This document shows, piece by piece, positions 11,007-54,530 of a DNA stretch of 64,000 bases. A program made the translations under genes and the position numbers. The stretch lies in the NCBI GenBank assembly GCA_964016885.1, contig OZ024741.1:170190001-170254000 (forward strand). Direction: 5' to 3'. Within the stretch, counting starts at the first letter, position 1. Each line of letters begins with the position of its first letter. This DNA is from Eledone cirrhosa. Lineage: Eukaryota. The notes beneath the pieces are model-generated. The model worked only from the letters and a program-made list of their open reading frames with translations, did no database searches and was not told where the DNA came from.

Positions 11007-11089
<83 letters not shown>

Positions 11090-11390: not shown

Positions 11391-11457
<67 letters not shown>

Positions 11458-11679: not shown

Positions 11680-11714
<35 letters not shown>

Positions 11715-11737
11715 GAATATATGTATGAATGGTGTAC

Positions 11738-11777
<40 letters not shown>

Positions 11778-17162: not shown

Positions 17163-17330
17163 AATACATATCAACATTTTCTTTCCATCGCACATATTAT
17201 TAAACCCTTAAAATTATTCTTAATACATATTAACATTTTCTTTCCATCGCACATATTATTAAACCCTTAAATATTATTCTTAATACATATTAACAATTTC
17301 TTTTCATCGCACATATTATTAAACCCTTCA
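17163..17330 (+). repeat. Three tandem copies of a ~60-bp unit
   Basis: AATACATAT.AACATTTTCTTTCCATCGCACATATTATTAAACCCTT starting at about 17163, 17222 and 17282. Confidence 0.85.
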
Positions 17331-17685
17331 ATATACAAACCTTAACTTTACATTATTTTTCTCTTCGTTAATTTTCAAATTCTTTTAATTTATACATTAT
17401 CTTCCAACGCTTTTTCAACCTCTCTATGTAAAACAATATATTTTTCTCAGTTATAAAAGCTATCTCTCTCTCTCTATCACCCATCTCTCCTCCTATCTCA
17501 TCCTTCCTCATTATACTCCTCCCCCTCCACTTTTTACTCTCATCCCCTCCTCTTTTTCATCCTCCCCCCCCCCTCAAACATTATTTTTTCCCCCAATGTC
17601 ACACATTAATCTAAAACTACTTTTCATCATATGTTGATTTAAAACTGCACTATCCACAAGTGTTTTTAACCTTCATATCATGTCC

Positions 17686-17756
17686 TATTTTATCTGATGA
17701 AAACACAAATGTTATTGCACGATGATATTTGTTTTTGAAATGCGCATAATAAAATA
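17686..17756 (+). ncRNA. Minimal type I hammerhead ribozyme with palindromic stem III
   Basis: Stem I TATTTTAT/ATAAAATA; CTGATGA (17694-17700); long stem II ACAAATGTTATT..GATGATATTTGT; GAAA; TGCGCA; triplet ATA. A mirror copy lies at 16557-16627. Confidence 0.85.
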
Positions 17757-17786
17757 CATGGAACTCATTTAACCATCTTTTGATCT

Positions 17787-17821
<35 letters not shown>

Positions 17822-17827
<6 letters not shown>

Positions 17828-17900
17828 TGTAATAAACAACGTAAGATAATTATTTCATTTAGAATGAAATAATTATCTTATGTTGTTTATTACATAACTA
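17822..17900. repeat. Palindrome built from a hammerhead 3' half
   Basis: TAGTTATGTAATAAACAAC.TAAGATAATTATTTCATT(tag)AATGAAATAATTATCTTA.GTTGTTTATTACATAACTA. It contains GAAA-TAATTA-TC. Confidence 0.7.
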
Positions 17901-18065
17901 AAACGCTCTGTAGCCTACATAGAGCGCTCTCTTTTCCTTTACCTTTCCTACGGAAATACTTCATTTATATATATATATATATATACATATATATATACAT
18001 ATATATGTACACACATAGACACACACATACACACACACGCACACACATATATATATATATATATA

Positions 18066-18144
<79 letters not shown>

Positions 18145-18319
18145 GGAGAGAGAGAGAGAGAAAGAGAGAGAGGTAGAACACTGTAAGGTAATATCCGTAG
18201 TGGTAGAGCACTCAGTCCATGTGACGAGTTTGGTAGAAGTATTACACAACTGCCAAGGGTATAAAGCTATACTCTCCAACCCCAGTAAGGAATTTGAATA
18301 TTGCACACGACTACGAAGT

Positions 18320-32900: not shown

Positions 32901-33856
32901 ATATATATATATATAACTTGCCTCGAGTGAATTATTTTTATATCTACGTACTCTGATGTGTTGATCAGATGTAAATAATTTATTGGAGTTCGATTGACGC
33001 AATTTCAAGCGATTGGCGACATCTAGAGTCACCTGATCAATGAAACAATTGTCAGTACTTGAAATATAGCCCTTTATTGTACAGCCAACCATGTTACTCT
33101 TCATTCTTTCACTATATATATATATATATATATTTTTTTTTTTCAAATTAAAATATAACTTTAAAGAGAGAGAGAATGTGTCATATCGTTTGAGAAAAAC
33201 AGTATTTTGTACACATATAAAAAGCACATAATATTTAGGAAAGCGTACATACTTTAAGATGGATATCCATTATCTTCTCTGTGGCAGATATATGTAAACA
33301 GCTCTTCTGTTCATTCATGGAATAAGAATTTCCAATATAAACTGTTAGGGTTATTGTCCTCGAATTGCTTTTTTCTCGATCACACGCAACATGTCTCTCT
33401 GATTAGTTTATATCTCCGAACAGATAAACATCAGTCGAATGAATTATATGTATGACCCATGGTGTGACTAGAACTCCAATTAAGATATGATCAATACGAG
33501 AAATCGCTTATAATCCAACCAAATGTTGTGTAATATGTCTATGAAAGAAATATACTACGCCGTCAGCGGGTTTCGGATTCTCTTACAACTTGTTGGAAAT
33601 ATAACGTTACAGAGTTAGATATATTTCTTTATTAGTTACAAGGGCGCACAAGAAAAGGGGACAATAAAAAGACATGCCGGGGATTTTACATACAGTCGTG
33701 TAAAAAATATAAAAACAAACAATTACAACAATGAAATCCCCAATAGGGGAGAAGCACCACAAATGGGTTGTTTAATACCCCGTCGATAGAACAACCCTCA
33801 ACTCCAGGAGCGTGTTGTGCAAGTGCTCCTTTCTTCCTTTTGCTCTCTTCTTCAAC

Positions 33857-36800
33857 CTACAGGCTTATAAACAGAGAAGGCCCAATCACTCGGACCATTT
33901 TCGCTTCATTCACCCACCTTTCAGTAAATTTACTGGGGTGCAGTGCCTCTCTCTCCACTCTGATTCTCCTTCTAAAGTGGTACTTAAAGAAGGGAATCAA
34001 TTGTTGTCCGGAGAGAAAGCCATCTGTCCTCAGTCCTCTCAATCTCGTCCACAATATAACTTCTTTCACCATAGCCACTGTACAGAGGAAAACCGCCTCT
34101 CTTTCGTTTTTGAAAGAGGCTGGCGGTTTGATCCTTACTATGGACTCGGCGGTCAACTGGATGTGTCCCATACGCGACAGCAGTTGTTCTGCATAGTTCC
34201 ACAGGTTGGTTACACCCGGGCAGTGTACAATTGCGTGCAGGACTGTTTCAATGTCCTGTGTGCATCTTGGACACGTCCTCTTGGAAGGATCCCTGCCGGG
34301 GCCTTCGTGCCTGTAGATCTTGTCCGAAATGGTGGAGCTCCTCGGTAGCACTGCCCGGCCAGGGACCTCTTGAAGTTGTCCATAGGTCCCGGGCGGAAAG
34401 TGCTACCAAACAGACTGGTGAGCTCAACATCTTCGATGCCAGAGTCTCTCCGAGCACGTCGTCGCCCTTGTAACGTACAAGACCTCTATGGAATCTCCAC
34501 TGATTGCTGAGACCGCTTGCCAGAGGACTGTGAGCGCCTGAGCGCATTCAATGTGCCAGGCGCCCATCGTTTTCGGTCTTTTCTTCACCCAGGACTGCAG
34601 CTCCGTCAGCGAGACGAGCTGTGGGAAAGCCTGTCTCACAAACGGTGCCCACACCGGTGGGAGGTCGGTGAGGAATACCTGGAGATGCCGCAGCCTCAGC
34701 GCATGTTTGCGCATCATCAGCCACGGCATTCCCAGACCTCCGTTGGAAGGGTGCTGACAGCAGACGGATCTTCTCACCAGCGGAGCCTGCTTCTTCCACA
34801 GAAACTGGAAGAGCATGCGTTCCATCTTGGCGAGGTGTTCACGGGGATACGGCACGAGAGTCAAGCGGTAGTAGATGACGGACGCTATGAAAGTGTTCGC
34901 CACCTCCGCTCTACCTTTCAAGGACAGTTTGCCCACTTCTGTGTGAGCGCAAACAACTTGGCCGTGACCTCGTTCCAGTTTTTCTCGACCTGCAGGTCTG
35001 GACCGAACCAGAACCCGAGCAATTTCACCGGTCCGTCCGTCCAGCGTCCAACGACGCTGTCGGACGTCATCAGTTTGCCTCTCCACGTACCGAGTTGCAA
35101 CCCGACAAACTTGTCCGGGTTTAGTTTTGCTCCCGTATGCGTTTCGTATTCTTTCAGTAAGTTGCCAATCACCCCGAGTGCTCTACACCATTACCGTAAC
35201 GTCGTCGGCATAAGCCGACGCTGCTTTGTGCAGGCCTGGTTCTAGAGAGATGCCTTGCAACAGCTCCAATTTCTGCAGTAGAGTCAATACATACAGAATT
35301 GAGGAGAGAGGGTACCCCTGTCGAATGGAACGCGTGATTGCGAACGGCTTCGTTCCGTAGCCGTTCACCTTCACCCTCGAGCAGATGCTGGTGTGCATCG
35401 CCTCGATCCATACCTCTGAAAACGGGGCCGAAACCGGCCGCCTTGAGAACCGCTTCCAAGTATCGATGGTCGACCCTATCGAATGCCTTAGACTGATACA
35501 AATTGATCAGAGCCCCACCGAAGCCGGGTTTACTACCCATCCTCTCTATAATGTATCGTGGAGGTTGTCGTGTATGGACCTGGTCGGGATTGCACACGTT
35601 TGCGCTTTCCCTACCAGGTTCTCGGCGCTAGAAACTTGGCCAAAATCTTTAACTCTGTGTTGAGCAGAGTTATGGGCCTGAAGTTGTTAATTTCGTCCCC
35701 TTTGTTCTCGTCTTTGCTGGTCAACGTTACTACGCCCTTGCCTGCAGAACTCGGAATTCTCCCGTTCTGCTGCCAATTACAGTAAACGGCTTCGAGGCCA
35801 CCACAGAATGCCTATGTAAAACTCATAGGGTAGACCATCTAGACCGGGTGACTTGCGTTTCCCGCAGCGGTCCAGAGCGTCCCGTATATCAGTGTCCGTG
35901 ATCGGTCTTTTGCAGAACTCGGCGTCCGTGCTTGAGAGACGCGGCAGGCCGTCGATGTATGAACTAAAGTTCATTGCCCCGTTCGGCTCACCGTCGTTCT
36001 GCTCAACCAGTCGCGCAAAGTGCTGCTGAAAGGCCGCGCACATTTGCTTGGGGCCAAGTAGCACGCGTCCGTTTTGGTATTTCAAAGACCGAATCGTGGA
36101 CTTGTTGCCACTTTTTGCCTCCGCCACTCGGGCCCAGCTGACAGCTTTCGCTCCTTCGTTTCCCAGAGCACGTGTTTTGCTTCTGACCAGGCAGCCTTCG
36201 TGTTTCGCATCGAAGAACTGGTCCAGTGCCGTTCTCGACGCTAACACTCAAGCTGCGTGCCACTTCTAAGTGCCTCCTCTACCTTGGCTACTAGTTCTCT
36301 TTCTATTTTGTTTTTCTCTTAGGCTAAATCTCTGCTAAACCCTATCTATTCTATTCTAATTGCTTTCTTGAGAGAGTACCTCCATTTATTGTTTACGATG
36401 GCTCCCGTTAACTGTTGCTTGACTAGTCTACTTATCCGTTCACTGTAAGCTTTACGTACCAGCAACGACACGTTCAGCTTCGAGTACCCGGGTCCTTGTC
36501 TATGTGTTGTATCACGGTTGACTAAGCAGACGACTAATTTGTGATCTGATTAGGCAACCATGTGCATTCGTGGACAGCTTAACATCTCCTTGTCCCTTTC
36601 TCTAATGAAGAACCTATCTAAATACGATCTAGATGTCCCGCTGCGGTTTGGCCACGTCCACTGTGGTGCAGTCGGGAAATCCAGTCGATACCTATCGGCC
36701 AGTTGTAATTAGCCGATTAAAGTTTTGAGGCTGTTGCACCCCCCCTCTACTGGGACATGCTCCCACATAGTCCTATCGTGCATCTAGGATACCATTCCAG

Positions 36801-37228
36801 TCCCCCACTAAAAGTAAGGAGCGAGACGTTCCCACAAATGACTCTAGACGCTTAAAGAAGTCTGGCCGTGATTGCGATTGCCCGGTCGGGGCATAAACGG
36901 CCACCAGTCTGAAAGCTCCACCTCCAATACTGTTCATGTCTAGGACTATCAGTCTACCCTTCGGGTCCAAGCGTACTTGCTCTTCTTCGACTTCCAGGTT
37001 CTTCCAAAACATGACAACCACTCCCTCTCCACCTCCTGGCTGACAGAGAGATGCGTCGATCTCAAAGTCGTCGAAGATGGGGGTTAGTTGCTGCCTTTTG
37101 TGGATCCTGGACTCGGTAAGGGTTATCACATCCATACCGTGTGACCTAAGGTCGTTTAAAAGTTGACCCTGTTTTCAGGGCATCCCTAGGCCACGCACAT
37201 TCACGCTTCCAACTCGTAAACTAGCCAT
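33857..37228 (-). pseudogene. LINE ORF2 (apurinic-like endonuclease, reverse transcriptase, zf-RVT-type motif) with several frameshifts and stops
   Basis: MASLRVGSVNVRGL, ITLTESR, VAVYAP, LLVGDWNGILD, KSPGLDGLPYEFY, QSKAFDRVDH, RSIRQGYPLS, AYADDVT, LSLKGRAEVANTFI, GGLGMP and CPRCTQDIETVLHAIVHC. Confidence 0.92.
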
Positions 37229-37269
37229 GTTGGTGAAGAAGTGTTGGTGAAAAAGGACGGAAGGTGCAC

Positions 37270-39055
37270 TTACCTTTTCGTTTCCTGGAGATCGGGTTGT
37301 TCAATCTCCATTTGGGTGCTGGATGGGGTGTCGGGTGGGGCGGGGAAACTTTTCAACAGGACGCGGTTGATGGGTTTCTGGCAGGGGTTGCCCACGACCT
37401 GTGAAAATTTATTTTTCAGGTCATTATAGGTTTCCATAGAAACCCTTATAAGTTTAAGCTGTGGAGACGATTCTGCCTTGACGAAGGTCTTGCCCTCCGT
37501 CTCCACCTTGGGGTTTTGGGAGATGCCCTCCATCAAACTCTTGTTGTTTGTGTTGATGTATGCGTATTGTTTGTATTTTTGTTGTGTTGTTTTAGTTTGT
37601 TGTTCATCCGGGAGTTTTTTTTTTATGGTGGGTGCTTGTGTTTGGGGTCGTGTTGGTGTTGGTTTTGCTGGTAGTGGGATGTTTGACTGTGGTGTTGTTT
37701 GTGTTGTTGTTGTGTCTGTGGTTGTGTGTTGGTGTTGGTGATTGGAGTTTTGTGGGTTTTGTGGTGTCTCTTTTTTTTATTCTTAGATTTCCGCGGTTCT
37801 CCCTCTTCTTCACTTAAAGAAAGAGAAGCAACTTCATACGTGGATGAATAATCATCGTCAAGAGTGTTGGGTAGGGGTAAGTTGTGTGGTGATGGTGTTT
37901 AGGTGTGTGTGTTTGTGTTAGTGTTTGATGGAGTGGGATGGGATGGGGCTGTGTTCTTCAGGGGTGTTGTCTCTGTTTTTTCTGTTGTTGTTGGTTGAGT
38001 GTCTGTTTGTTTCGGTGTGGTTGCTCGTTACGTCTGTCGTTGTACTTGTGGTGGTGGTGGTTATTTTGGTGTTGGTGTTGGTAATAGCGTTTTTTTTAAT
38101 GATGTTGTTTTGTGAATGACAGGAGGCTTTTAGGTGTGCTGTGCTACCACAGCGAAAGCAATGAAATTTTCGTCCTTCTGTCGAAATATTTAATTTGTTG
38201 TCGTCGTCGATGACGATTCTTTCGGGTATTTTGGAGATTCTCTCCGGCCTGATTTGCAACAGAATCTCCAAATCAGTACCCGCCCACCTTTGTCGAACAG
38301 AATTTCGTATCGAAAGAATCATATCAGTTGCTGGCTCTACGAAGCCAGCCAAGATCCACCAGATGTTAATGTTTGGCGGTATGTTTTTTATTTTTATTTT
38401 TTGTATCCTTTTTCCCATGTATGTAGGGGAAAAGGTGCATGATTTTGGCACTATTTGTGTCACAGAATGTTTTGGGGCAAGTGCCTCACTTTTAAAGCGT
38501 ACGGAAACACTTCCGTACTGTTTTCGTCGTTGGAGAAAGTCGATATTTTCTCGAATTTCCTTGAAAGTAGCTTCTATATCTGTTTGACTAACAAATATCG
38601 GCTTTCTCGTGGTATTGGACACAGTCCTAACGGACGCTGTCCTTCGAATTGTGTCTTCTTTTATTTCAAGGGGTGAGTTAATTCCTTCTCTTCGAAAGTT
38701 ACAAATTTTCTCCCTTGCTGGAGCATATCTCTTGCATTGGAGATGTCAAGATTTATAAAATCTTGTTTTTTGTTCACTGTTTCAGCGAAAGACATTTTTT
38801 GTGTGGTGTTGCTGTTGTTGTTGTTATTGTTATCGTTGTTATCCTCGGTGTTGGAAATCTCAGTTCCTTGACGAGGTGAAACTTTATGTGTAGATGTATC
38901 TGTGGAGTTGTTGATGTTTACTTTTTCATGTGTATGTATCTTAATGTGTTTAATTCCTGAGTTTTCATTTCTCTCCGCTTCGACGGTAGAAATTGTACAA
39001 TCTTCAAGTGGCAATATTTTTTTCCCTCTGTTGACAGTCGTATCTATGGCGGCAT
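37270..39055 (-). pseudogene. LINE ORF1 (gag-like, CCHC zinc knuckle), frameshifted
   Basis: SFAETV motif, CFRCGSTAHLKASC in ORF 37918..38622 and a Thr/Asn-rich tail. It lies directly upstream of ORF2. Confidence 0.8.
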
Positions 39056-40160
39056 ACCATTGGGAGCGCCCCGGCTCCACCGCCTCGCCAATCAAGTTCC
39101 TCCAATCGCTATCAGAGGCAACCGGGATGGACGCTCCACTCGGCTGGTTAGGCGGCCGTTTCTCTAACGACCCTGCAGAACGGGTAGGGGACTGTTTACA
39201 GTATTTCTTTTTATTCCTTAGATCGCTCCTTTTCGAACTAATCTGTTTCACAGTCTTTCCGGGCAGGAAAGGAGCGATCCCAAGATTGACACGACGACAC
39301 CCCGCCCTAAGAAGCTCGTCCTCCTTCTCGAGAAGGACCGAGACCTCCTGCTCGGACCAACAACCACGGCCAACCCGGGTGCGGGGCTGCCCAGCTCTCT
39401 CACGAGAGGCTGCAGCAGCAGCACGAGAGGCACGCTTCTTTCCGATTTCCTCTGCGTGTTTCGCGATCCTGCGGCGATTGGCCACCACTGGATGGCGATG
39501 TCTCTCGTGCTGTGATCTTCCTGCGACCGTACGAAAAGTACGGTTGCACTCTCCGCACCTGTGGATCAAGTCCGAGACGGCGGGCATGTCGTCCCATCTC
39601 CTGCCCGTACATCGGCCCACGTGCACCCGGAGCGAATGCAGGTGGCAACTTTCCCTACCGCATTTGCTGCACCTAAAAACTGCCTTTCGCTCATGACAGC
39701 GCAGCAAATGCTCCGCCCAACCAGACGGGCCCGAGAAAGTACGCGAACAGCACGAACAAAACAAGACTACGCTCTTACACGGAATCTCGAGACAGTCCTT
39801 CCCCGCGACTGTTTGCCCAACCTCACAGACAGAGTCCATGGGGTCGCGCGCGAGCCACGACGGCAGTTGCTTGCCTCTCAAAACCAAAGCGTGGGTTGGG
39901 TACTCCAGAGTAAATTTATCGGGTGTATCCCTACGAACTAGTATAGTCGGTATTTGAAACCTCCGGTGGGTCAAATCCAGTGAGCCGGCGCTCTTACGAG
40001 GAACATAGCCCGGCTCTTTGCCAGTCCTCGGAGACAGTTGCCAATCGCAGCGGGCCATTACAGAACGCTGCGACAGGCCGGAGGGACCCATCCCATTCCC
40101 TCCGGCCACTGGTTTTTCGGCCCCCAGCTGCCGTATGGACTTCAAATTTTGTGTCATCAT
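38661..40160 (-). CDS. Chimeric ORF: R2 N-terminal DNA-binding region (three zinc fingers and Myb, about 370 aa) fused in frame to the first ~130 aa of the Tx1-like ORF1
   Basis: CSCCSRTFSGPSGWAEHLLRCH (CCHH), CSKCGRESCHLHSLRVHVGRC (CCHC), CGECNRTFRTVAGRSQHERHRH (CCHH) and Myb-like WSEQEVSVLL..IAPFLPGKTVKQISSKR. There is an abrupt GC-rich to AT-rich shift near 39055. Expression is unknown. Confidence 0.75.
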   Translation of the reverse strand: MMTQNLKSIRQLGAEKPVAGGNGMGPSGLSQRSVMARCDWQLSPRTGKEPGYVPRKSAGSLDLTHRRFQIPTILVRRDTPDKFTLEYPTHALVLRGKQLPSWLARDPMDSVCEVGQTVAGKDCLEIPCKSVVLFCSCCSRTFSGPSGWAEHLLRCHERKAVFRCSKCGRESCHLHSLRVHVGRCTGRRWDDMPAVSDLIHRCGECNRTFRTVAGRSQHERHRHPVVANRRRIAKHAEEIGKKRASRAAAAASRERAGQPRTRVGRGCWSEQEVSVLLEKEDELLRAGCRRVNLGIAPFLPGKTVKQISSKRSDLRNKKKYCKQSPTRSAGSLEKRPPNQPSGASIPVASDSDWRNLIGEAVEPGRSQWYAAIDTTVNRGKKILPLEDCTISTVEAERNENSGIKHIKIHTHEKVNINNSTDTSTHKVSPRQGTEISNTEDNNDNNNNNNSNTTQKMSFAETVNKKQDFINLDISNARDMLQQGRKFVTFEEKELTHPLK

Positions 40161-40351
40161 AATTTAGGCACCAATTAGTTCGTCATTAATGTGGCCGACC
40201 AACCGAGAATGGTAGAACCTGCCGAGTCAACACTGACCACCGCAAAAAAAAAAAAAAAAAAAAAAAAAGGGAAGCGGGACAGAGCTGCCTCTCTCGTACA
40301 GCTCAAAACCACTGACTTAAGCTCTCTTCCCACGCCAAGGGTGGTGCCGAC
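39056..40351 (-). mobile_element. 5' portion of an R2 retrotransposon (three-finger, R2-A-type) inserted at the canonical 28S site
   Basis: 28S ends ...GGGAGTAACTATGACTCTCTT at 40352, where the canonical continuation AAGG|TAGCCAAATG is the R2 target. A same-strand ZF-ZF-ZF-Myb ORF follows 190 nt later. Confidence 0.93.

Positions 40352-40360
<9 letters not shown>
40167..40360 (-). ncRNA. Putative HDV-like self-cleaving ribozyme spanning the 28S/R2 junction
   Basis: P1 is 28S-derived (GA)CTCTCTT with AAGAGAG(CT); P2 is GGCACCA (40348-40342) with TGGTGCC (40173-40167); P3 is CCC/GGG with the 7-nt loop TTGGCGT; J4/2 CTAA precedes the P2 3' strand; the P4 region is long. Confidence 0.65.
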
Positions 40361-40390
<30 letters not shown>

Positions 40391-40406
40391 GTTGAATTTC
40401 TTCACT

Positions 40407-40438
<32 letters not shown>

Positions 40439-42442
40439 CGCGTCTATGCGGCTCGGCCGGCTACGCGATGCTCTGTTTTAATTAGACAGTCGGATTCCCC
40501 CGGTCCGTACCAGTTCCGTGTTGACCGTTCGCCGCCAGCCGAACGCCTGCCGCGCGTCTCGGCAACCGCCCTCCTCCTCGCGAACAAGAAAGAAAGGAAG
40601 CTAACCGACGCGCCAACGAGCCCGAAGTCGTGTCGCTCCGCGGTGTCCCGGGCGTGGAGCCGTGTTGTTCGCGCCCACTACGCATCGAACGTCGCAAAAA
40701 GCAACCGACCGAAACGCCTCTCCAAGCCACCCGTTTTTGTTTCCGACCGACAAAAACGAAGAAAACGAAGAAAAAAAGACGACGACGACGCGCGAGCCGC
40801 CGGCACTGCGATGAACAGTAAAGGAAAGAGAAAAAAAAACCGAAAGAACAAAACAAAAGCGAGCAGAAAAACGAAAAAAAAAACAAACCGCCCTTGCGAG
40901 CGACAAGCCTCTCCCTCCGTCTACTGCTACGCCTTCATCCCTCCTCCGCGGTAATCTTTCAACAAACCCCGTCCGCCTCCGCGCGACCAACCCGCAGCCG
41001 CCGCCGCCTTCTTCCTCTCTCTCCTCGCCGCCAACCGAAAGAAGGGCAAGGAAAAACGAAACGAACGCAAACGAAACGGGCGCAAATCGACCACCCGACC
41101 GACGCTCGAACGTCGAGTCCGACGCCAACGCTACAGCCCCGTACCGGTTCACCGCTTCGCGTACAGACGTGCCGCGCGACCGATCCCGAGTTTTTGGAAA
41201 AAAACAACAAGACGGCCGACAGGCCGACACACACACGGCCCGACCGACCCGGTCCTCGGAGCCAATCCTTCTTCCGAAGGTACGGATCCATTTTGCCGAC
41301 TTCCCTTACCTACATTGGCGCTATCGACGAGAGGCTGTACACCTTGGAGACCTGCTGCGGATGGTGGGTACGGACCGACTCGAGAGCTGCGAATCGTTAC
41401 GGACCCGGATTTTCCAGGGCCGCCGAGAGCGCAACGGACGCCGCCCGAGACGCGGCGCTCTACAGGTACCATATCCGTATCTCCGGACGAGCCGATTCCA
41501 CGGACGCGGTCCTTTACGAAGAAGAGAGAACTCTTCCCGGGGCTCCCGGCAACGTCTCCGGGCTCGCTTGCGTTGCCGCTGCTTCGCCCGACCGCCGGCT
41601 TCGATGACGCGACGACGCGTTAAATCCCACCGACGGACGAGCACTCTCCGAGTTCGGGTTCGGGAATATTAACCCGATTCCCTTTCGATGCAAGGCCGGC
41701 CGTAACAAAAACAGAAGAAGCCAAAAAAAAAAAAAAAAAGGGTTTTTTTTCTTTTTTTTTTTTCCTCTTTCTCGACAACGGATCCGGCGCCTTTCGTACA
41801 AGCTTTCGCCCGCTTCTTAGGACCTACTGACCCGTGCTCGACCGCCGTTGGCACGGAACCCTTCTCCACTTCGGTCTTCGAAGGTCTCGTTCGAATATTT
41901 GCTACTACCACTGAGATCTGCACCCGCGGTCGGCTTCACCCGGGCTCACGCCCGCGGCTTCCGTGCACGCCGCGGCGCCCTCCTACTCGACCAGGCATCG
42001 AAGAAAGTTACGTCGTGTTACCTTTTTTCGCCTATCGCCTGGCCGGTCCGGCATCGGTCGCTCGCTCCAGCGCCATCCATTTTCGGGGCCGGTCGATTCG
42101 GCAGGTAAGTTGTTACACACTCCTGAGCGGATTCCGACTTCCGTGGCCACCGTCCTGCTGTCTATATCGACCGACACCCTTTCGGGGATCTAATGGGCGA
42201 AGCGTAGGGCACCTTAGCCGGACGTTCGGTTCATCCCACATCACCAGTTCTGCTTACCAAAAGTGGCCCACTTGGCACCGTGCCTTCGTCGCCGAAACGG
42301 CGGCCGCCTCCGATCGGGAGAGAGAGCGGCCCGTTTCGCCCGTTCCGAGTTCGAGAGTAGATCGAGGCCGTCAACGTCCCCGGGGCCTCCAGTCGTTCGC
42401 TTTACCGGACGGAATTGCGTGTCGTTCTGTCTGCTGCTGGCG

Positions 42443-42485
<43 letters not shown>

Positions 42486-43989
42486 CGGCTCGATTGGTCT
42501 TTCGCCCCTACACCCGGTTCCGACGATCGATTTGCACGTCAGAGGCGCTTCGGACTTCCACCAGAGTTTCCTCTGGCTTCGTCCCGACCGGGCGTGGATC
42601 GCCATCTTTCGGGTCCCCGGCCGCCTGCTACACCTGAGTCGGAGCGCGCCGCGCCGACGGCCCGAAAGCCGCCACGCGACGCGCACACCCGACCCGGGAA
42701 CGATGCTTCGAAACGCCTACGACGGCGCGGAAAAAAGTAGAAAAAAACAACAGCGACACCACCCGAAGGCCATGCCGCATGCCGTCAATTCAAACCAGCC
42801 CCTAACGCCGCCGTCGACGACGCGTCACGTTCTCGCTTTCACTTCGCCGTCGGAGTTCGTTAAATTCGATTTCTTTCGCTCCAACGACTCGCAACCGACT
42901 GGGACTCCTCGGTCCGTGTTTCAAGACGGGTCGGGTAGGTTGCCGATGCTCGTCGCAGACCTGCAGCAGCGGACGGCTCGCGATCCTCGTCCACCCAGCG
43001 ACCCGCTCCCTCCTGCTCCGCAAAGAGAGCAAAAGAGAAAAAGCAAACGGGGCGAGCGAACGAGGCGGCCGCTTTCTCGAAAGCCGATCGGAAATTTTAA
43101 AGGATATTTAAAAAAACCAACCTAAGCATATACGAACGGCGCTGCGGCTGATAAAGGAACACGCGCGTTTGTCCCGTCCCCGCCTGTTAGCCGTTCCTGG
43201 GACGATGAAAACCACCGCCGAGCGACGGGCCCGGTCGAGAGAAGCGCTGTTTTCGGAAACCCGCTTCGAAAGCGAACCGGGAACGGTTCGTTTTCTAGGC
43301 GGGACGCCGCTCTGCGACCTGCGGACACCGCGCGCCATCCAGCCTGACGGGAACGGGTCGCGACGACGGATCGAAGGGGAAGTGCGTCCGATGCCGGCAC
43401 CCCGCGAATCGTAACGCCGGCGAGGCGGTCGGCGGTCGACTCGTCGAAACGAGAGACCGCCGCCGACGCGATCGCCGACGACGACGGCGCCTTAAAACAG
43501 CAGCGGACTGAGTCCCCTCGCGATCGCGGTGAACGGTCCTACTCGTTTAACTCCTGGGCGGTTTCACGGTCTCTTGAACTCTCTCTCCAAAGTTCTTTTC
43601 AACTTTCCCTCGCGGTACTTGTCGGATATCGGACTCGTCCCGGTATTTAGCCTTGGATGGAGCTTACCACCCGCTTTGGGCTGCGTTCCCAAGCAACCCG
43701 ACTCTCGGGCCGAAGAAAGAGACACTGTCGATCGCCGCCGGCTCCGAATGGGCCTGGCACCCGCTTTGGGCAGCCCCGATCGAGGGGACTCCGAACCTAG
43801 CCGGGCGAAACGAACGACCGTGTACGACCCTTGCGCCACAGCTCTCGACGACCTGCTTGCGGACGACGAGATTCAGCGTTGGGCTCCTCCCAGTTCACTC
43901 GCCGTTACTAAGGGAATCCCGGTTGGTTTCTTTTCCTCCGCTTAGCGATATGCTTAAGTTCGGCGGGTAGTCGCGTCCGAGTCGAGGGC
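40352..43989 (-). rRNA. 28S: 28S rRNA gene, 5' part only (truncated at the R2 site)
   Basis: ACCCGCCGAACTTAAGCATATC, GACCCGTCTTGAAACACGGACC, AGCTGGTTCCCTCCGAAGTTTCCCTCAGGATAGC, CGAAAGGGAATCGGGTTAATATTCC and GTGATTTCTGCCCAGTGCTCTGAATGTC occur in the correct order with large expansion segments. Confidence 0.97.
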
Positions 43990-44599
43990 AGCTATTCGCA
44001 TACGCCGAATACGCTGAATACGAAGAACGACGAGGACGGTAAGAAGAAGAAGGCGGCATTGATAAAGAAGAGGTTGGCGGCGGGCGCCAAGGCGGAATGT
44101 GGAAAAAAACGAGAGAAATGGGAAAAAAAGAAGCGGCATCGAAATCGTTTCTCGTCGGCCGACACGAACGCTTTGTGTTTTTGGCGACTCGCAGAGCGAA
44201 CGCCGGCCGACGAACAACGACCGCGCCTGTGTTACTGCGTTTCTTTTTACCCTTCTCGTCTTCCCTTCTTCTAAATCTTTCTCCTCTTTCCGTGCTGCGA
44301 CGATCTCCGAAGCGAACGACGAGAAATAAAGAAAAATAACGACGAAAAGTGTTAGTTCTTATTTCAATACGGGAGACGGAGCGTTCCGCGAGCGACGACT
44401 CTCGCTTCTTCTGCGACTCCCGACTTCCCGCTGTTACCATGGCGCAAAAGAGAAGAGTAAAAGAAAAGAAACTGCGCTTCGCTAAGGCGGGCAGCGGCGG
44501 CAGCAGCGCAAAAGGCGGCGGATGCGTTTCTCTCTTTCATCTCTCACTCTCGTGAGCGGGCGGCGCATGGCGAAACAGCAGACATCGCGATTGTATCGT
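43990..44599 (-). other. ITS2
   Basis: Lies between 5.8S and 28S. Confidence 0.9.
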
Positions 44600-44762
44600 G
44601 ACCGCCTCTCGACCGGACGGGGCCCCGGGACGATGGAATCCCGGGGCCGCAATGTGCGTTCGAGGTGTCGATGTTCACTGAGTCCTGCAATTCGCATCAG
44701 TTCACGCGGATAGCCGCGCTCTTCATCGACGGACGAGCCGAGTGATCCCTCGTCCAGGGTTT
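44600..44762 (-). rRNA. 5.8S: 5.8S rRNA gene
   Basis: GGATCACTCGGCTCGTCCGTCGATGAAGAGCGCGGC, GAATTGCAGGAC and CGAACGCACATTGCGGC. Confidence 0.95.
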
Positions 44763-45309
44763 TGTCAATTTTTAAACGAAAACGAAAACGAAAAAAAAAA
44801 AACACGGTAAAATGAACGCGAACGCATAGAAACAACCAACGGTAGACGATGGCGGAGGACGGCGGCGACGACAGCGACGTTATTCACGGGAGGTTTTCAC
44901 GTTCGCTGCTCGCTGCGGTTTGTCTGCTGCTGGCTGCTTTGCTGCTTCCGCGGGCGAGGTGAGAGGAGGAGGAGGAGGAGAAAAATAAGAAGCGCACGTC
45001 GAAAAAAATACGTTCTTTCGGATACGAAATCGAACGATGCGCAAATGTTATCAGCCGAGCGCCGTGCCGGCGCCGGCAAAAGAAAAAAAAAATAACGGTA
45101 GGAGCGGTTTAGGCGGCTGTAGACGCGCAGTAAGCGATATTGGCGGCGATTTCGCAAACGGCGCTCGCTCCATTTAACGGGTTACGCCGGCTGCTAGGCG
45201 TCTTCAGATGACGAACCCGACCGTTGTTGTTGTCGTGATCACCGAATAACGAAAATAAGGCGGCTTTCGTTTTGGCGGCAGAGTCGGCAATTAACGATAA
45301 TATACGCGG
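44763..45309 (-). other. ITS1
   Basis: Lies between the 18S 3' end (GGATCATTA) and 5.8S. Confidence 0.9.
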
Positions 45310-45367
<58 letters not shown>

Positions 45368-45510
45368 AGCGATCGGGTTCGGTCGTCTTCTCCGGGCCAT
45401 CAGAGAGCGCACCGACGACGGCAACGAACCGACCTGACGGCCGAATCGAAACGCCGCCGCACGGCCTGCGAACTCGTGGGCCAGATCCGAGGACCTCACC
45501 GGACCGTTCG

Positions 45511-45553
<43 letters not shown>

Positions 45554-47106
45554 GATCGACGCGGGCTGATGACCCGCGCCTACCGGGAATTCCTCGTTCA
45601 CGGGGTTGGTTCCAGGCCCCGATCCCTATCACGGGAGGTGGTTCAGAGGTTTCCCGACCCTCTCGGGCCGGGGAGTGGCGCCCGCTGATACCTCCAGTGT
45701 AGCGCGCGTGCGGCCCCGGACATCTAAGGGCATCACAGACCTGTTATCGCTCCGCCTCGTGCGGCTTTCTGCCGCCCGTCCCTCTAAGAAGCGCTGCGTT
45801 CACCAACCGACTGGCCCGGACGCGACGACGTGCCGACGCCGGGGCTGTTCGCGCCGGTCCCCCCTCCCGAGCCCGATAAACCGACCGCCGCCTCCGCCAG
45901 GGCTGCCTTCATTCCTCCATTCCGCAAGCGAACTCGCGAAAGAAGAAGACGACGACGACGCGACGACGACGGCAACGGCAACGGAAGCCCGAGCTCGAAG
46001 AAAAAGGGAAAAAAACCGAACGCAGGACAGCTTACCGACGACGGCTTCGGCGCCGCCACGCTACCGGAAAAGCACTAATCGACGCGCTAGTTAGCAGGCC
46101 GGAGTCTCGTTCGTTATCGGAATCAACCAGACGGATCGCTCCACCAACTAAGAACGGCCATGCACGCAGAGCTCTGCGGCCCGACCGCGCACGCACCGGC
46201 GAATAGGGCCGGGAGTGCGAACGGACGACCGAAGTCGACGCGCGGCGCGCGAACGACAACGGCGCCGTCGCCCCGAACGCGCTGACGACGCAGCGCGCTT
46301 TCGAGACCCGAATTCCGACTACGAGCTTTTCAAACGCAACAATTTTAATATACGCTACCGGAGCTGGAATTACCGCGGCTGCTGGCACCAGACTTGCCCT
46401 CCGGTCGATCCTCGTTAACGGATTTGAAGTGTACTCATTCCGATCGCGGGGCCTCGACAGAGTCCCGCGTCGTTATTTTTCGTCACTACCTCCCCGTGCC
46501 GGGAGTGGGTAATTTGCGCGCCTGCTGCCTTCCTTGGATGTAGTAGCTGTTTCGCATGCTCCCTCTCCGGAATCGAACCCTGATTCCCCGTTACCCGTTG
46601 CCACCACGGTCGGCACTTACCGGGCCGTCGACAGAAGCGATTCTAAGCCCGTGCGATCGTACTGACAGTTATCCAGAGTCACCAAAGTCGAATTGATGCG
46701 CGACACCGCGCAACCGGCACGCAGCGAACTGCGAACGGCGCTGACGGCATCTAACGCGTCGTCGGTCTCAGTCTAATATTTGCGCCGCGACCAATGCGAA
46801 GGCCGACCGTGTCGACGCGATCTGTTGGGACCGCGCGGGAAGACGGACCGACCACAGCGATGGAACGCTGAGCGCGTTTGTAACCCGACTCCCGGGTGCG
46901 ACCTGCGATTGCGGCCTCAGTTGCATGTATTAGCTCTAGAATTGCCACAGTTATCCACTCTCCTCGCGGTGAGGAATACGGTCCCGAGGATTAGGTCCGG
47001 TTCCTGAGCCATTCGCGGTTTCACCATTCGTTTACGGCATGAACTTACACTTGCATGGCTTAAGCTTTGAGACAAGCATATGACTACTGGCAGGATCAAC
47101 CAGGTA
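45310..47106 (-). rRNA. 18S: 18S rRNA gene with a large internal deletion (non-functional copy)
   Basis: Starts TACCTGGTTGATCCTGCCAGTAGTC, has GTGCCAGCAGCCGCGGTAATTCC and GTACACACCGCCCGTC, and ends GAACCTGCGGAAGGATCATTA. The central conserved block is missing at 46165/46166. Confidence 0.95.
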
Positions 47107-49200
47107 TCTTCCGCACGAAATACAAAACGACGACCGAGAACAGAAGCGCATGGAGGTGGCTGCAGCGAATTTCATCTCGTCTCGTTGTAGGCGGAATGAG
47201 AAAACGTAACAGAAAAAAAAAATACGGAAATGTCGGCAACCGGTCCACGAGCCGGTGGAGGTAAGAAACGAAGAGAAAAGAAGAAGGACGCGGCGCTGCG
47301 CGTTTGGCGGCATTTACTCATCAGATCATCTCCACTCCCAGCGACGTCGTCGACAAAACGGGCGTATACGAAAACAAGTCGCCCGCCGGCTGCCGGCCAA
47401 TCGTTTAGTCTTCTTTCTCCTCCTCGGCGGCGGCGATGAAAGAAAAGAAAAGAAACAAACGAAAACGAGCTCGCAAGACGGTTTACAATCCGATGGCATC
47501 GCACGAAGCCGCTTTCGAAAGCGTTTCCCTGGGCGTAAGTGCGAGCTGAGGCGTCATGCAGGGGCGGCAGCAGCATGCGGCCTCGAAGAAGAGGAGAGAG
47601 ACAAGTAGGCGGCGCCCTCCGCTTTCGATTCAACAGCTGCTGTCGCCGTTACTGCTACGTAAAAAGAAATCGGTTCGACATGGCGACGGAATGCGGTCAA
47701 CGGAAGAGAGTTAGGAAGACGACGACGACGCGAAAAGCGCCGCCGCGTAACCTAACGGCTAGTTATGCCGGGGCAAACTTGGACGACGCCGACCCGATAA
47801 AAGGCAGCGGCGCAAGCAGGGACACCAGGACTTGATGCCAGTGTCCCTTCGGGAGGGACGACGCCGCTTTCTTTCATAGATATCGCGTCGCCGTTGGCAA
47901 AACGAGGGTAGCTACGGATATACCCAAGCCCGCCGCGGCAGTGGCGACGCAACGCGAGGTCAGCGGCATGACCTGACCGGGTTCACGACGAAAAGCCGAA
48001 ACCTTCGTCGCAGCAAGGAAGAGTGACGCGCGTCGTCGCCGTCGTAGATCGTCGTCAAACGCATTGCAGGGCATTTAGGCGTTGCTCCTACATTAAAATG
48101 ACGGCTATTACGACGGACGCGTACCTACTGCTGTGACGGAAAGGCGGCGGTTCGGAAGGCGGATAATCGTCGAGGCCGAGGGTCGGCGAGCGAACGAACG
48201 AACGAAAAAAAAAAAAAAGAGGTGAGGAGGAAGCGGCGAGGCGTTCGGCGAAAAGGTTTTTCAGACATTTTACGCCGACCGGGCGGGAAGGCGTTCGTTT
48301 TTTGGCGTCAACCGAGGAGTAATTTGCGTTGCTCCAGCGGTAACGAACGTCTTCGTCGCAGCAAGGAGGAGTGACGCGCGTCGTCGCCGTCGTAGATCGT
48401 CGTCAAACGCATTGCAGGGCATTTAGGCGTTGCTCCTACATGAAAATGACGGCTATTACGACGGACGCGTACCTACTGCTGTGACGGCGGAAAGGCGGTC
48501 GTTCGGAAGGCGGATAATCGTCGTGGCCGAGGGTCGGCGAGCGAGCGAGCGAGCGAACGAACGAAAAAAAAAAAGAGGCGAGGAGGAAGCGACGAGGCGT
48601 TCGGCGAAAAGGTTTTTCAGACATTTTACGCCGACCGGGCGACAAGGCGTTCGTTTTTTGGCGTCAACCGAGGAGTAATTTGCGTTGCTCCAGCGGTAAC
48701 GAACGTTTTCTATCGTGGGTCCGGTCGGGCGACGGCGGCGGTCTGAAAAGGCAATTCTTTTGCCGCGACGGAAGCGCAATCGAAAGGCGGATCACAAAAT
48801 GCGGCTAGCCGTCGAAAAGGATAAAAAAAAGAAAAAAGAATAGGCGAGGAAAAGGCGGCGCGAGGAGGTTCGGCGAAAAAGGCTTTCAGAACTTTTACGT
48901 CGCCCGGACGGGAAGGCGCTCGTTGTTGGCGTCAACCTAGGAGTAATTTGCGTTGCTCCAGCGGCAACGAACGTCTTCTATCGTGGGTCCGGTCGGGCGA
49001 CGGCGGCGGCGGCGGTCTGTAAAGGCAATAATTCGTCGATGGCGGCGTGTACGGGCTGTAACGTGAGGGCGGGTCGTGGACGAGGACGACATCGCATATA
49101 GGGTATCCGAACACGCCTAACCCGTAACCTACGCAGTAAACCGAAAGCTGCAACGGCTAGCACCCTTCCGTTCACTAAGCTCGTTCGACCGAGGTTACCC
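47107..49200 (-). other. 5' external transcribed spacer with ~350-bp tandem duplication (48003-48350, 48351-48706) and a partial third copy (48841-48975)
   Basis: Lies upstream of 18S and the repeats are directly visible. The start is inferred from the promoter-like motif. Confidence 0.75.
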
Positions 49201-49235
49201 TATATAATAGACAGGACCCCCTGGCCGTGCTGCAT
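49195..49235 (-). promoter_or_regulatory. Putative RNA polymerase I gene promoter / initiation site
   Basis: Minus strand GCAGCACGGCCAGGGGGTCCTGTCTATTATATAGGGTA. It is the most 18S-proximal of three identical blocks, and TATATAGGG matches initiation motifs known from other rDNAs. Not mapped experimentally. Confidence 0.6.
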
Positions 49236-49984
49236 CCTCCGGAATCGTTGCAAATCCCCCAAGGGCGATCCGCCCGCCACGGGTCGGCTGCGGAACCGCC
49301 TAGACGGCGGGTTGGCTTCGATCCCTCTGTCGATGCGGGACCTAGAATGGCTAGAGAGATAGAAGGCGGCGTGTCGTCGGCGAAGCTGCACCACTTCGCC
49401 GTTCGGGCGTCGTCGTCGGCTGGATTCCCCTGCAGCCACCGCGGGTCGGACGCGGCCGACTCGGCACGCATCAACGGCGGAACGTTTACCGGGTACGAGG
49501 CGGAAGGCGGAAGGCGTCGTGTCGCGTGTACACGCCGTCTTGCCGCATCTCTTTCCCGGCAGCTACTCGCAAAAGTACGGGTCGGCGGCGGAACCACCTA
49601 GCCGGCGGATTCGATTACTTTCCGCCGTCTACACGGGGCCTCCCCGAAGGAAGCTAGTTGGCGGCGTGTTGTCGTCGCGTCGATGACCAAGCTACTCCAC
49701 GCTGCCGTTCGGGCGTCGTCATCGGCGGCTGGATTCCCCTGCAGCCATACGGGTCGGAGGCGGCCAACTGGGCACGCCCCTTAAAGGCGGAACACGCATC
49801 GGAGGTGGAGGGCGGGCGTTAACGTGCAGGCGGGGCGGACGAGTTCTAGACGGCATGTCGTCGAGGCGGAGACATCCGTCATAGCATAGGGTAAGCCGGC
49901 ACGTACCCGTCTTGAAAACGGAATATTCACGACTCTCAACGGGTAGCACCCGGAATCGTTTTCTTCGAGCTCGTCCGATCAAGC

Positions 49985-50025
49985 CTACCCTATATAATAG
50001 ACAGGACCCCCTGGCCGTGCTGCAA
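49985..50025 (-). promoter_or_regulatory. Putative Pol I spacer promoter 1
   Basis: Identical ~38-bp block to 49196-49233. Confidence 0.55.
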
Positions 50026-50881
50026 AATCCCTACTCGGTGGTATTCCCCGCAGGCGTTTCGCAACCCTACGGGTCGGCGGCGGATCCGCCTCGCCGGCGG
50101 GTTGCGAACTTTCTCGCGATCGAAGCGAGAAGGCGTGAACGAATAAAGGAATGTTTGCCGGGTTCGAGGCGGAAGACGGAAGGCGTCGTGTCGCGTGGCG
50201 GAACTTCGCGTATACACGCCGTCTTGCCGCCTGTCTTTCCCGGCAGCTACTCGTAAAAGTACGGGTCGGCAGCGGAACCGCCTAGCCGGCGGATTGGATT
50301 TCTTTCCGCGATCGAAGCGTGAAGGCGTGGACGAATAAAGGAACGTTTGCCGGGTTCGAGGCGGAAGACGGAAGGCGTCGTGTCGCGTCGGGGAACTTCG
50401 CCTCGCTTCGCATATACACGCCGTCTTGCCGCCTGTCTTTCCCGGCAGCTACTCGTAAAAGTACGGGTCGGCGGCGGAACCGCCTAGCCGGCGGAATGGA
50501 TTTCTTTCCGCCGTCTACACGGGGCCTCCCCGAAGGAAGCAAGTTGGCGGCGTGTTGTCGTCGCATCGACCAAGCTACACCACGCCTCCGTCCGGCCGTC
50601 GTCATCGGCTGGATTCCCCTGCAGCCACACGGGTCGGAGGCGGCCAACTTGGCACGCCTTAACGGCGGAAACACGCATCGGAGGCGGATACGGAGCGGAG
50701 GCGGAGGGCGGGCGTTAACGTGCAGGCGGGGCAGACGAGTTCTAGACGGCATGTCATCGAGGCGGAGACATCCGACATAGCATAGGGTAAGCCGGCACGT
50801 ACCCGTCTTGAAAACGGAATATTCACGACTCTCAACGGGTAGCACCGGGAATCGTTTTCTTCGAGCTCGTCCGATCAAGCC

Positions 50882-50922
50882 TACCCTATATAATAGACAG
50901 GACCCCCTGGCCGTGCTGCAAA
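50882..50922 (-). promoter_or_regulatory. Putative Pol I spacer promoter 2
   Basis: Identical block 897 bp further upstream. Confidence 0.55.
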
Positions 50923-52139
50923 ATCCCTACTCGGTGGTATTCCCCGCAGGCGTTTCGCAACCCTGCAGGTCGGCGTCGGTTCCGTCTCGCCGGCGGGTTG
51001 CGAACTTTCACGCGATCGAAGCGAGAAGGCGTGAACGAATAAAGGAACGTTTGCCGGGTTCGAGGCGGAAGACGGAAGGCGTCCTGTCGCGTGGCGGAAC
51101 TTCGCCTCGCGTAACTTCGCCTCGCGTCGCGTATACACGCCGTCTTGCCGCCTGTCTTTCCCGGCAGCTACTCGTAAAAGTACGTGTCGGCAGCGGAACC
51201 GCCTAGCCGGCGGATTGGATTTCTTTCCGCGATCGAAGCGTGAAGGTGTGGACGAATAAAGGAACGTTTGCCGGTTTCGAGGCGGAAGACGGAAGGCGTC
51301 GTGTCGCGACGGAAACGTCGCCTCGCTTCGTGTATACACGCCGTCTTGCCGTCTGTCTTTCCCGGCAGCTACTCGTAAAAGTACGGGTCGGAGGCGGAAC
51401 CGCCTAGACGGCGGATTGGATTTCTTTCCGCGATCGAAGCGGGAAGGCGTGGACGAATGAAGGAACGTTTGCCGGGTCGTAGGCGGAAGACGGAGGGCGT
51501 CGTGTCGCGTCGGGGAACTTCGCCTCGCTTCGCGTATACACGCCGTCTTGCTGTCTGTCTTTCCCGGCAGCTACTCGTAAAAGTACGGGTCGGCGGCGGA
51601 ACCGCCTAGCCGGCGGAATGGATTTCTTTCCGCGATCGAAGCGGGAAGGCGTGAACGAATAAAGGAACGTTTGCCGGGTCGGAGGCGGAAGACGGAGGGC
51701 GTCGTGTCGCGTCGGGGAACTTCGCCTCGCTTCGCGTATACACGCCGTCTTGCCGTCTGTCTTTCCCGGCAGCTACTCGTAAATGTACGGGTCGGCGGCT
51801 GAACCGCCTAGCCGGCGGAATGGATTTCTTTCCGCGATCGAAGCGGGAAGGTGTGAACGAATAAAGGAACGTTTGCCGGGTTCGAGGCGGAAGACGGAAG
51901 GCGTCGTGTCGCGTCGGGGAACTTCACCTCGCTTCGCGTATACACGCCGTCTGCAAAGGCCCTGGACGGTCGTATTCCCCGTAAGCTTACGGGTCGGCGT
52001 GGGAAAGGCCATACAGTTACGCGTTCGCCACCGCCAACTGACGTTTTAGTGACAGCTTGATTTCGGACCTTTTCTGAGGAAGTGTGGCTACCCAGCTCGC
52101 TACCGCATCCTAATTCTTATCGATCTTGAGGTCTGGTAA

Positions 52140-54530
52140 ACTTCAAAGAGCAATTTCACTAGTCCGTTTTTCGAGCGTCCGGCGGCGTCGTTGAATTGAA
52201 TGGTGCCGAGTTGCAAACCAACTTTTCCGGGTTCATTTTTGCTCCCGTCAACCTTTTATATTCTTATAAGAACGTGCCAACCAACACGATTTCCTATATG
52301 TTCGACACCATTACGTTGATATCGTCCGTATATCCACGGGTGGGACGCCACGCAACAGTTCCATCTTGAGAGTCAATACATACAGAGAACAAAGGAGAGA
52401 TGGTACCATTGGCGGACAGCTTACATGATTTGAAACGGTCCCGTAAGGTGGTCATTTACTTCCACCACCTAGCAGATTCCGATGTGCATTACTGCAATCT
52501 AGCCTCTGAAGACGAAACCGAAGCCATCTGCCTTAGGTACAGCCTCCAAATATCGCTGGTCGGCCCTATCGAAAGTTTTTGCTTGATCTAAATTGGCCAT
52601 AGACCCACCGAAGTTATGTTTATTTCCCTCTCTTTTATATATCGCATGAAGTGGAGGTTGTCGTGTATGGTATGGACCTGATCAGTATTGCGCATGTTTC
52701 CACATCCCCTATCAGACCCTCGACAATATGAACCAACCTATTCGTTAGCACATTGGCGAAAATCATAAACTCTAAGTTTAGGAGAGTTATGGGCTTGGAA
52801 TTGTATATAGAGTTCCATTCTCACATTTCCATATCAGCGTTACCGGCTCACAGGACTCGGAATACACCCGTGTTGCGGCTTGCTGCAGTAGACCGCTTCG
52901 GAGACATTAGAGAACAATCTGGCATATCTTGGTAAAATGTGTAGGGCTGACCATCTAAACCAGGTGACTTGCGCCTATCCTTAATTTCGCCTTATATTAT
53001 CGGCCCTTCGCAGCACTCAGCATCAGCTGGTGAGTGTCATGGGATGACATCGAGGTAGGAACTGAATTTCGCTACTGTCTCCGAAACCCCTGCACACCCC
53101 GAACAGCTGAGCAAAGTGCGGGCGAAAGGCCGCACACTTCTGTCAGGAATCGTTTAGCACGCTTTCGTCTCGGTCTGTCAAAAACCGAATCGTGTTTCTC
53201 TTCCACTCGGGCTCATCGAACAACTTTCGTTACCCTGTTTCTTAGAGCACGCTCCTTAGCCCTGACAATTCAACCTTCATGTGTCACATTGAAGAAATGG
53301 TCTCATGCCATTCTCGCCGTTAGCACATCAGTTGCAATGCCACATCTAATCGTCTCATCAAATTTAGCTAGCAGCTCCCCCTCCTTTCTATTGTTTCTAT
53401 TACTACTTTTTTTTATTAACACCTAATCAAACTACTTTAGTCTCTCTGTTGAGAGCACATAACTACCAGTTGTTGACAACTCCCCTGTCAACTTATATTT
53501 CACTAAAGTAGTGACCATATCTTTGTAAAGTGTACGCACCGGGAACTACGTGTTATTCTTCCAATAGCCAGGTCCTTGACTACATGTTCTATCTAGGTCT
53601 ACCATGAAGATCACTATTTTCTGACATAACGAAAAACTATATATGATCTAGATGACCCTAATTGGTTGGTCCAAGTCAACACCGGCGCGTTCCAGAAATC
53701 TAGTAGAGTACCTGTCAGAGAGTTGGAACTCACTGATCAGGTACTTGAGGATTTTGCACCTTAAGAAATCCGGTCGCCCGGTTCCGATCGGGGCGTAGAC
53801 GGTCATCAGTCTAATGGCACCCACTTCACTATTGCTCACGTTAAGGACCACCAACTTCTCCTCCGGGTCTTGTAAGATTCTTCCTACCTCGAAATTAAGG
53901 CTTTTCCAAAACAGCACTACTACTATGCCTCCTATTCCAGGCTGACTAAGAGATGCGAAGATCTCATAGTCCTTTAAATGGAGGCTATTGCGCACGTTTC
54001 CAACATTCTGACCTACCTAGGTAATGGAAGTCACATCTTTATCTACTGGTCGTCCAGCTAGCGATCTTTCTTCCATGACGACCACAGTACATGATCATTT
54101 AAGTATTCTACTTGCCATGTTGGCTGGTTGATCAAGAGAAAAAAGATTTACTTACACTCCGGCGTTTGTGGCCGTCGGTTGGTTCCACCTATGGGAAACC
54201 CTTTAAAAGCTTGAACCTGGCCTTTACATTAGGTGTTCCCAAAATCACGTGGAAAGCCCTCCATACTCTCTTATATGTACCCATCGTCATACCGTACCAT
54301 CATAAGGTCTTTCGGTACTCTAAATGTGTGTGTACCAAAAATATCCCACTTTTTTAGATTTTTTGCTTCGTGCTATGAGGACCATTCGTTTTTCGTTCGC
54401 CCTTCTTACGGACACGAAGTTTTCTGTTAGTGTTCTTTGTTGTTGTTGTGCTTGATTTCGGTTGGGTGGTTGTGGTAGTGGTTTTAGTGTTGTTGTGGAT
54501 GTGTCTTTTGTTTATTTTGTTTGTGGTGTG
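52140..54530 (-). mobile_element. Older degenerate Tx1-like LINE related to 33622-39055 (ORF1 tail, APE, RT), broken inside the RT region
   Basis: ORF 53648..53995 (EIFASLSQPG..VVVLFWKSL..GAIRLMTVYAP..RPDFL) aligns by eye to 36773..37135. Also FGGSMANLDQ..FDRADQRYLE at about 52540-52610, YTDDINVMVS at about 52305-52332 and GAKMNPEK at about 52225-52248. Confidence 0.85.

Follow-up and report, generated by a model that had tools for sequence, protein, structure and literature searches.

One of the questions raised by the genome of Eledone cirrhosa (assembly GCA_964016885.1; 3.0 Gb, 1796 contigs) is whether two distant branches of retrotransposons have merged there into one element. The window, by which we mean the whole analysed stretch of 64,000 nucleotides (contig OZ024741.1; G000:C2:170190001-170254000), holds the 5' end of an R2 retrotransposon at its target in the 28S ribosomal RNA gene, and the R2 reading frame runs without a stop into open reading frame 1 (ORF1) of a long interspersed nuclear element (LINE) of the apurinic/apyrimidinic endonuclease (APE) type. 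A sequence-only reading of this DNA described the LINE as replacing the reverse transcriptase (RT) and restriction-like endonuclease (RLE) of R2, and left three options: a hybrid element, a Tx1 family that targets R2, and a one-off junction. We consider it likely that the last is correct, and that a dispersed fragment of ribosomal DNA (rDNA) with R2 was joined to an older L1/Tx1-type LINE, likely at the DNA level by microhomology-mediated end joining, giving a product that is likely inert. The whole locus is most likely a dispersed rDNA pseudogene with a chance in-frame join and not a new hybrid jumping gene. The features on which this rests are:

39049 to 39051, minus strand: junction, three base pairs of exact microhomology common to R2 and the LINE, within a longer imperfect match
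39052 to 40351, minus strand: R2 5' 1.3 kb of the three-zinc-finger type (leader, zinc fingers ZF1 to ZF3, Myb)
33613 to 39051, minus strand: 5'-truncated, decayed L1/Tx1-type APE LINE of an abundant family, about 91% identical to a full-length copy (L069)
38661 to 40160, minus strand: fused frame, 499 codons from the first Met

Parts and copy number of the junction

The 28S sequence ends at 40352, four nucleotides short of the uninserted target in L090, and by this comparison the R2 5' part is inserted at the 28S R2 site, where the sequence-only reading had placed it. The stop-free frame (38661-40163, minus strand, 500 codons) begins with 369 codons that match the R2Tg protein (PDB 9dou) over the zinc fingers and Myb (E=4.6e-16) and two further R2 proteins (E<=1e-12), and the CCHH, CCHC and CCHH fingers are legible in the translation. 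It then enters the LINE at Ala34 of ORF1, in the LINE's own frame. Full-length R2 of this type is about 4.2 kb, and neither R2 RT and RLE nor 3' 28S follows the module at this locus. These parts of the earlier description were confirmed.

The LINE copy has lost about 300 nt, namely its 5' untranslated region (UTR) and ORF1 codons 1-33. LINE matches that end at the junction might have been taken for the true 5' end of the LINE; this was rejected because the fetched copies continue upstream (11 of 11, nine of them with a complete 5' end about 300 nt upstream). In complete copies ORF1 starts 33 codons before the junction point. Comparison with other copies of both families places the breakpoint at the three shared base pairs.

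How often does the junction occur? Its pattern has one match in the assembly (control 0), whereas native LINE sequence across the same point has 278 (control 0). For each search the best 40 candidates were scored, and of the 40 matches to 38900-39250 one spans the junction, which is the window itself, eight are R2 only and 31 are LINE only. A hybrid family, in which an APE LINE took over the RNA polymerase I (Pol I) expression, the ribozyme release and the rDNA-binding domains of R2 as its ORF1, should be present as more than one independent junction copy, and the single match largely refutes it. The in-frame fusion, the whole zinc fingers and Myb, and the retained promoter-like motifs and predicted ribozyme core speak for such a family; against them stand an ORF1 that is cut before its RRM/CCHC region, an ORF2 that was probably dead before the join, and private changes, few in number, in which purifying selection was not seen. 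We therefore regard a hybrid family as highly improbable, and the view that the LINE replaces R2 RT and RLE as a working unit finds no support. R2 copies with RT and RLE and LINEs with their own 5' UTR exist elsewhere beside this single-copy junction, which is largely the situation that the sequence-only reading had named as speaking against its hybrid element. In the literature no R2-Tx1 hybrid was met by title or abstract opening.

The second option, in which a Tx1 family targets R2 and a deletion came later, draws on the frequent preference of Tx1-clade families for repeats, other transposons included (PMC4494074). By the measure given there, R2 should lie in more than 20% of the flanks. 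However, neither R2 nor rDNA lies within about 1.5 kb of any of the 40 other LINE loci (the sole rDNA/R2 hits in this check, which come from L039, are located outside the R2 of L027). Of 20 stretches of 10 kb, 18 contain R2, two of these overlapping, and none of them has a Tx1 joined to R2. The nearest Tx1 to an R2 elsewhere is a 71% piece 1.2 kb away (L125). In addition, the sequence 3' of the LINE, by which a target is recognized, is not R2, and full-length copies lie behind (CTAT)n or (CT)n. This explanation is the least probable of all those considered.

A misjoin of an rDNA-R2 copy with a LINE copy in the assembly could be suspected, as repeats lie on both sides. Yet only 3 bp are common at the join, the window lies within a 416-Mb contig, and both sides carry private substitutions and deletions that were seen in no other copy examined, which makes a misjoin very unlikely. 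Among the pieces listed for the five sequencing runs compared, out of seven, none bridges the junction; no weight was given to this, as contigs drop rare variants and run X5 is of the reduced-representation type. Loose read-contig ends at 39048-39051 run on into native R2 or native LINE.

Relative ages and the order of events

The two sides of the junction differ in the number of private substitutions, defined here as those seen in no other copy examined, with low-complexity sites excluded. The LINE has 91 in 3036 sites (3.0%), against 7 in 1169 for R2 and 10 in 1389 for 28S, together 17 in 2558 (0.66%; Fisher P=6e-11). The middle part of the LINE, for which only four copies were available and which was kept outside the Fisher test, has 58 in 1863. 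Adding the best ORF1-core matches (40 were scored out of 1736 candidates, and the closest is 93% identical) gives 72 in 2065. When each copy was left out in turn, the R2 of the window (0.6%) was typical of ten other segments (0.1-1.4%), and its LINE (3.1%) was the second highest of 16 in ORF1 and the highest of 14 in the 3' part. The two sides are close in GC content (ORF2 0.52, R2 0.56). Judged from these divergences, the age of the LINE is probably four to five times that of the split of the rDNA-R2 piece from its relatives, and the LINE was probably already decaying when the join was formed. Most of its lesions therefore probably predate the join, and the chimera was probably never autonomous. 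The remains of the LINE and its main lesions are:

33628 to 33633, minus strand: AATAAA at the 3' end of the LINE, with a very short tail of TCTA type behind it; LINE end near 33613
33860 to 37190, minus strand: ORF2 remnants (APE, RT, zf-RVT) with at least nine frameshifting indels
37921 to 38683, minus strand: RRM/CCHC-like region of ORF1, in a different frame from the fused one
38672 to 38698, minus strand: site of a single-copy 10-nt frameshifting deletion in ORF1 (near 38683)

The ORF2 indels were counted against the majority of other copies, with four copies for the middle part. The APE, RT and zf-RVT pieces each fall below the Pfam curated cut-off because the ORF is fragmented. The disrupted APE-RT ORF2 and the AATAAA end had both been recognized from the sequence alone. 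The ORF1 frameshift is seen in one copy, so the assembly holds no parent LINE copy with this lesion.

Another explanation that keeps the junction a one-off is that the LINE was inserted downstream of the rDNA-R2 by target-primed reverse transcription, and that the LINE, truncated at its 5' end, became joined to R2 at the microhomology with deletion of what lay between. L1-type insertions are typically 5'-truncated with short microhomology, a pattern that fits here; the LINE 3' end is intact, and one deletion would explain all the missing pieces. This order of events predicts a LINE that is younger than R2, whereas the LINE has about 4.5 times more private substitutions and at least ten frameshifting indels against none in R2. 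We find it unlikely, although it is the strongest of the alternatives.

The order that fits the age contrast can be followed through the rest of the rDNA piece, which lies upstream of R2 in the same orientation:

40352 to 47106, minus strand: dispersed rDNA unit (18S, 5.8S, and 28S as far as the R2 site)
47107 to 52005, minus strand: external transcribed spacer (ETS) and intergenic-spacer repeats, with three promoter-like motif copies
52006 to 54000, minus strand: older Tx1-type LINE, about 64% identical to the first LINE, cut inside RT by the rDNA piece

The window has one rDNA unit (18S at 45310-47106, 5.8S at 44603-44761, 28S down to the R2 site), which is a single dispersed rDNA pseudogene outside an array. 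The whole rDNA piece is 13 kb long and reaches about 52005 through spacer repeats that are located upstream of promoter-like motifs. In the favoured explanation the LINE would have been inserted first and then decayed, after which the 13-kb piece, from spacer repeats to R2 5' end, would have been placed between the older Tx1 and the LINE. The R2 3' part, the 3' 28S, the first 300 nt of the LINE and the 3' part of the older Tx1 would have been lost either at the capture of the rDNA piece or by later deletion, and the in-frame join would be a one-in-three coincidence. Neither the 3' part of the older Tx1 nor the missing 5' end of the first LINE was found across the insert within the window.

Could the join have been made in RNA instead? 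A template switch, or ligation of LINE RNA to a pre-rRNA/R2 co-transcript during reverse transcription, would put both parts in the same orientation, as is seen, and 28S/LINE-1 chimeras are known in mammals (PMC13174262). The 28S segments recorded there are 50-482 nt long. Here the piece measures 13 kb, its spacer repeats extend beyond the promoter-like motifs on the upstream side, and the rDNA-R2 and LINE parts are of unequal age. Since the piece contains spacer DNA and has cut elements on both sides, a DNA-level event fits better than an RNA template, and we give an RNA-level origin very little credence, about as little as the hybrid family.

Internal deletions of a comparable kind are present elsewhere among the R2 copies (L022, L025, L030). 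A second dispersed rDNA unit (L025:7785-7786; G000:C4, about 153.426 Mb) has a deletion from R2 position ~1354 to the 3' 28S, about 40 nt beyond the breakpoint of the window. Other R2 breaks lie at about 1057, 1215, 1475 and 1543, in a search that favoured copies holding the first 1.3 kb.

The fused frame and its possible expression

Can the fused frame encode a working protein? It consists of about 370 R2 codons, about 122 codons of low-complexity ORF1 and seven out-of-frame codons before the stop. The 10-nt deletion shifts the frame to the stop at 38661, before the RRM/CCHC region, which is outside the fused protein. The sequence-only reading was right that the frame enters ORF1 without a stop; the fusion ends short of the folded part.

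Several observations speak against an inert one-off join. The age contrast assumes equal mutation rates, and the sampling of best hits favours young copies. Over its first ~490 codons the fused frame has neither stop nor frameshift, in contrast with the heavily broken remainder of the LINE. Compared with the majority of copies, the R2 part has a dN/dS of 0.30 (14 synonymous and 10 non-synonymous codons). A fully open single R2 ORF was not found among the fetched copies (longest 875 aa). Promoter-like motifs and a predicted ribozyme core are kept, so that transcription may be possible. We weighed the frame and its selection as follows. The low dN/dS sits in the shared changes (14 synonymous, 10 non-synonymous, dN/dS 0.29), and is therefore inherited from an active R2 lineage; the apparent purifying selection on this copy was rejected on that ground. 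The private R2 changes are two synonymous and four non-synonymous (dN/dS 0.82, P=0.56), a set of six that itself counts against firmness since it has little power. In ORF1 the private changes within the fused frame are two synonymous and four non-synonymous, and those beyond the frameshift 4 and 21, again with low power, and within the fused frame neither part differs from neutral. Open R2 5' frames are common: over the stretch that each covers, five of 12 other R2 segments are without stops and frameshifts (one 68-codon piece not counted). Two of 11 other LINE copies are frameshift-free over the same 119 codons.

The leader holds a further candidate for function:

40322 to 40358, minus strand: hepatitis delta virus (HDV)-like ribozyme core (P1, P3, L3), predicted by eye

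In this prediction P1 forms seven of seven pairs with the last 7 nt of 28S and P3 three of three, next to an L3-like loop, with P2 unassigned; the same layout was seen by eye in most other R2 copies listed. An Rfam search gave no HDV-type family among nine matches at E<=10. The ribozyme-like leader of the sequence-only reading thus holds for its by-eye pairing and finds no counterpart in Rfam, and a self-cleaving HDV-like ribozyme is a prediction. Cleavage by R2 ribozymes at 9 to 36 nt upstream, within 28S, is on record (PMC3774820). A different leader with the same P3/P1' layout stands behind target sequence at the 28S site in two other copies (L086:2132, L091:1647), and in L075-L089 many dispersed 28S copies carry an element that has the R2 leader but diverges beyond it.

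The promoter-like motif copies lie at 49198, 49988 and 50884, and the motif is present in other rDNA units too. One copy heads the ETS and two are within spacer repeats, making them candidate Pol I gene and spacer promoters. The motif presumably resembles the Pol I start sites of plants and insects. Relative to L062 and L065, the 18S lacks 43 nt near 46634, a deletion that may serve as a marker for transcription of this rDNA unit.

A more speculative option is that Pol I could release a chimeric RNA, with R2 leader and LINE 3' tail, encoding a 499-residue zinc-finger/Myb protein that could sit on the 28S R2 site but not cut it; through the tail of this RNA, active Tx1 enzymes could copy it. 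We hold this to be very doubtful. If it were true, the locus would be a natural dominant-negative brake on R2 and a snapshot of the birth of R2-headed APE elements.

Element families and known systems

The LINE is of L1/Tx1 type, by its sequence features; the Tx1 clade label is provisional. Its ORF2 is of the L1/Tx1 group type (APE-RT-CCHC), closest to L1: among solved structures a 67%-identical relative (P0003) matches L1 ORF2p at E=4e-50 and R2 at 4e-24. ORF1 of a family copy (L017) has atlas matches of 0.90-0.92 to zf-CCHC/RRM clusters, and Pfam gave no relevant match. Of the protein relatives of the LINE, a single one bears an animal name, that of Argonauta hians. All nine complete 5' ends (L010, L012-L018, L020) lie behind (CTAT)n or (CT)n, seven of them directly behind the 3' end of another LINE, and the family possibly targets its own microsatellite tail. 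These microsatellite-associated ends recall the Kibi-type preference (PMC3812793, PMC4494074). L1/Tx1-clade APE LINEs, among them the microsatellite-targeting Kibi and Koshi of the same sources, share the putative RRM/CCHC-like features of ORF1 and the APE-RT-zf-RVT ORF2; here the tail and flank are (TCTA)n or (CT)n, and the window copy is truncated and dead.

Three-finger R2s are found in Mollusca (PMC13188248), and the present family may be among those catalogued in that source. R2 of lineage A, the three-zinc-finger lineage, such as R2Tg (PDB 9dou; PMC13188248), has the same 28S target and three N-terminal zinc fingers with Myb, and a P1 drawn from 28S sequence (PMC3774820), as predicted here. 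In contrast, the window keeps the 5' 1.3 kb alone, without RT, RLE and 3' 28S, in a single dispersed unit. RT and RLE are present in other R2 copies; RT was confirmed by RVT_1 in L023 and L027, the latter with CCHC and PD..D motifs seen by eye, and in L028 and L065 an R2 of about 4.2 kb is followed by 3' 28S.

The closest likeness of the locus is to dispersed rDNA pseudogenes (Robicheau et al., 2017, via PMC10946416), which are also single decaying units outside arrays, joined to unrelated repeats; the unit of the window differs in carrying an R2 5' end joined in frame to a LINE ORF1 by chance. RNA/LINE-1 chimeric insertions, including 28S/LINE-1 (PMC13174262), similarly carry, 5' of a LINE and in its orientation, sequence derived from rRNA. 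Unlike them, the window has 13 kb with spacer DNA, parts of differing age and no evident target-site duplication.

As found, the locus matters little: the genome has many dispersed copies of rDNA and R2, and this is one rDNA pseudogene that has been rearranged. It does show that chance can yield an in-frame join of two retrotransposons, and that private substitutions on each side can order the events. A spreading R2-headed APE element would have meant module swapping between the RLE and APE branches, which the copy number and lesions do not support.

Two minor observations were made in passing. A head-to-tail cluster (L021-L024; G000:C18:15.04-15.08 Mb) has at least nine R2 segments of two families, some separated just by a short duplicated 28S target, and ends at an ORF resembling that of a long terminal repeat (LTR) retroelement. 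In the window, GC skew swings from -0.86 to +0.79 at 8000-12000 and 17000-20000, which suggests simple-repeat arrays in opposite orientation.

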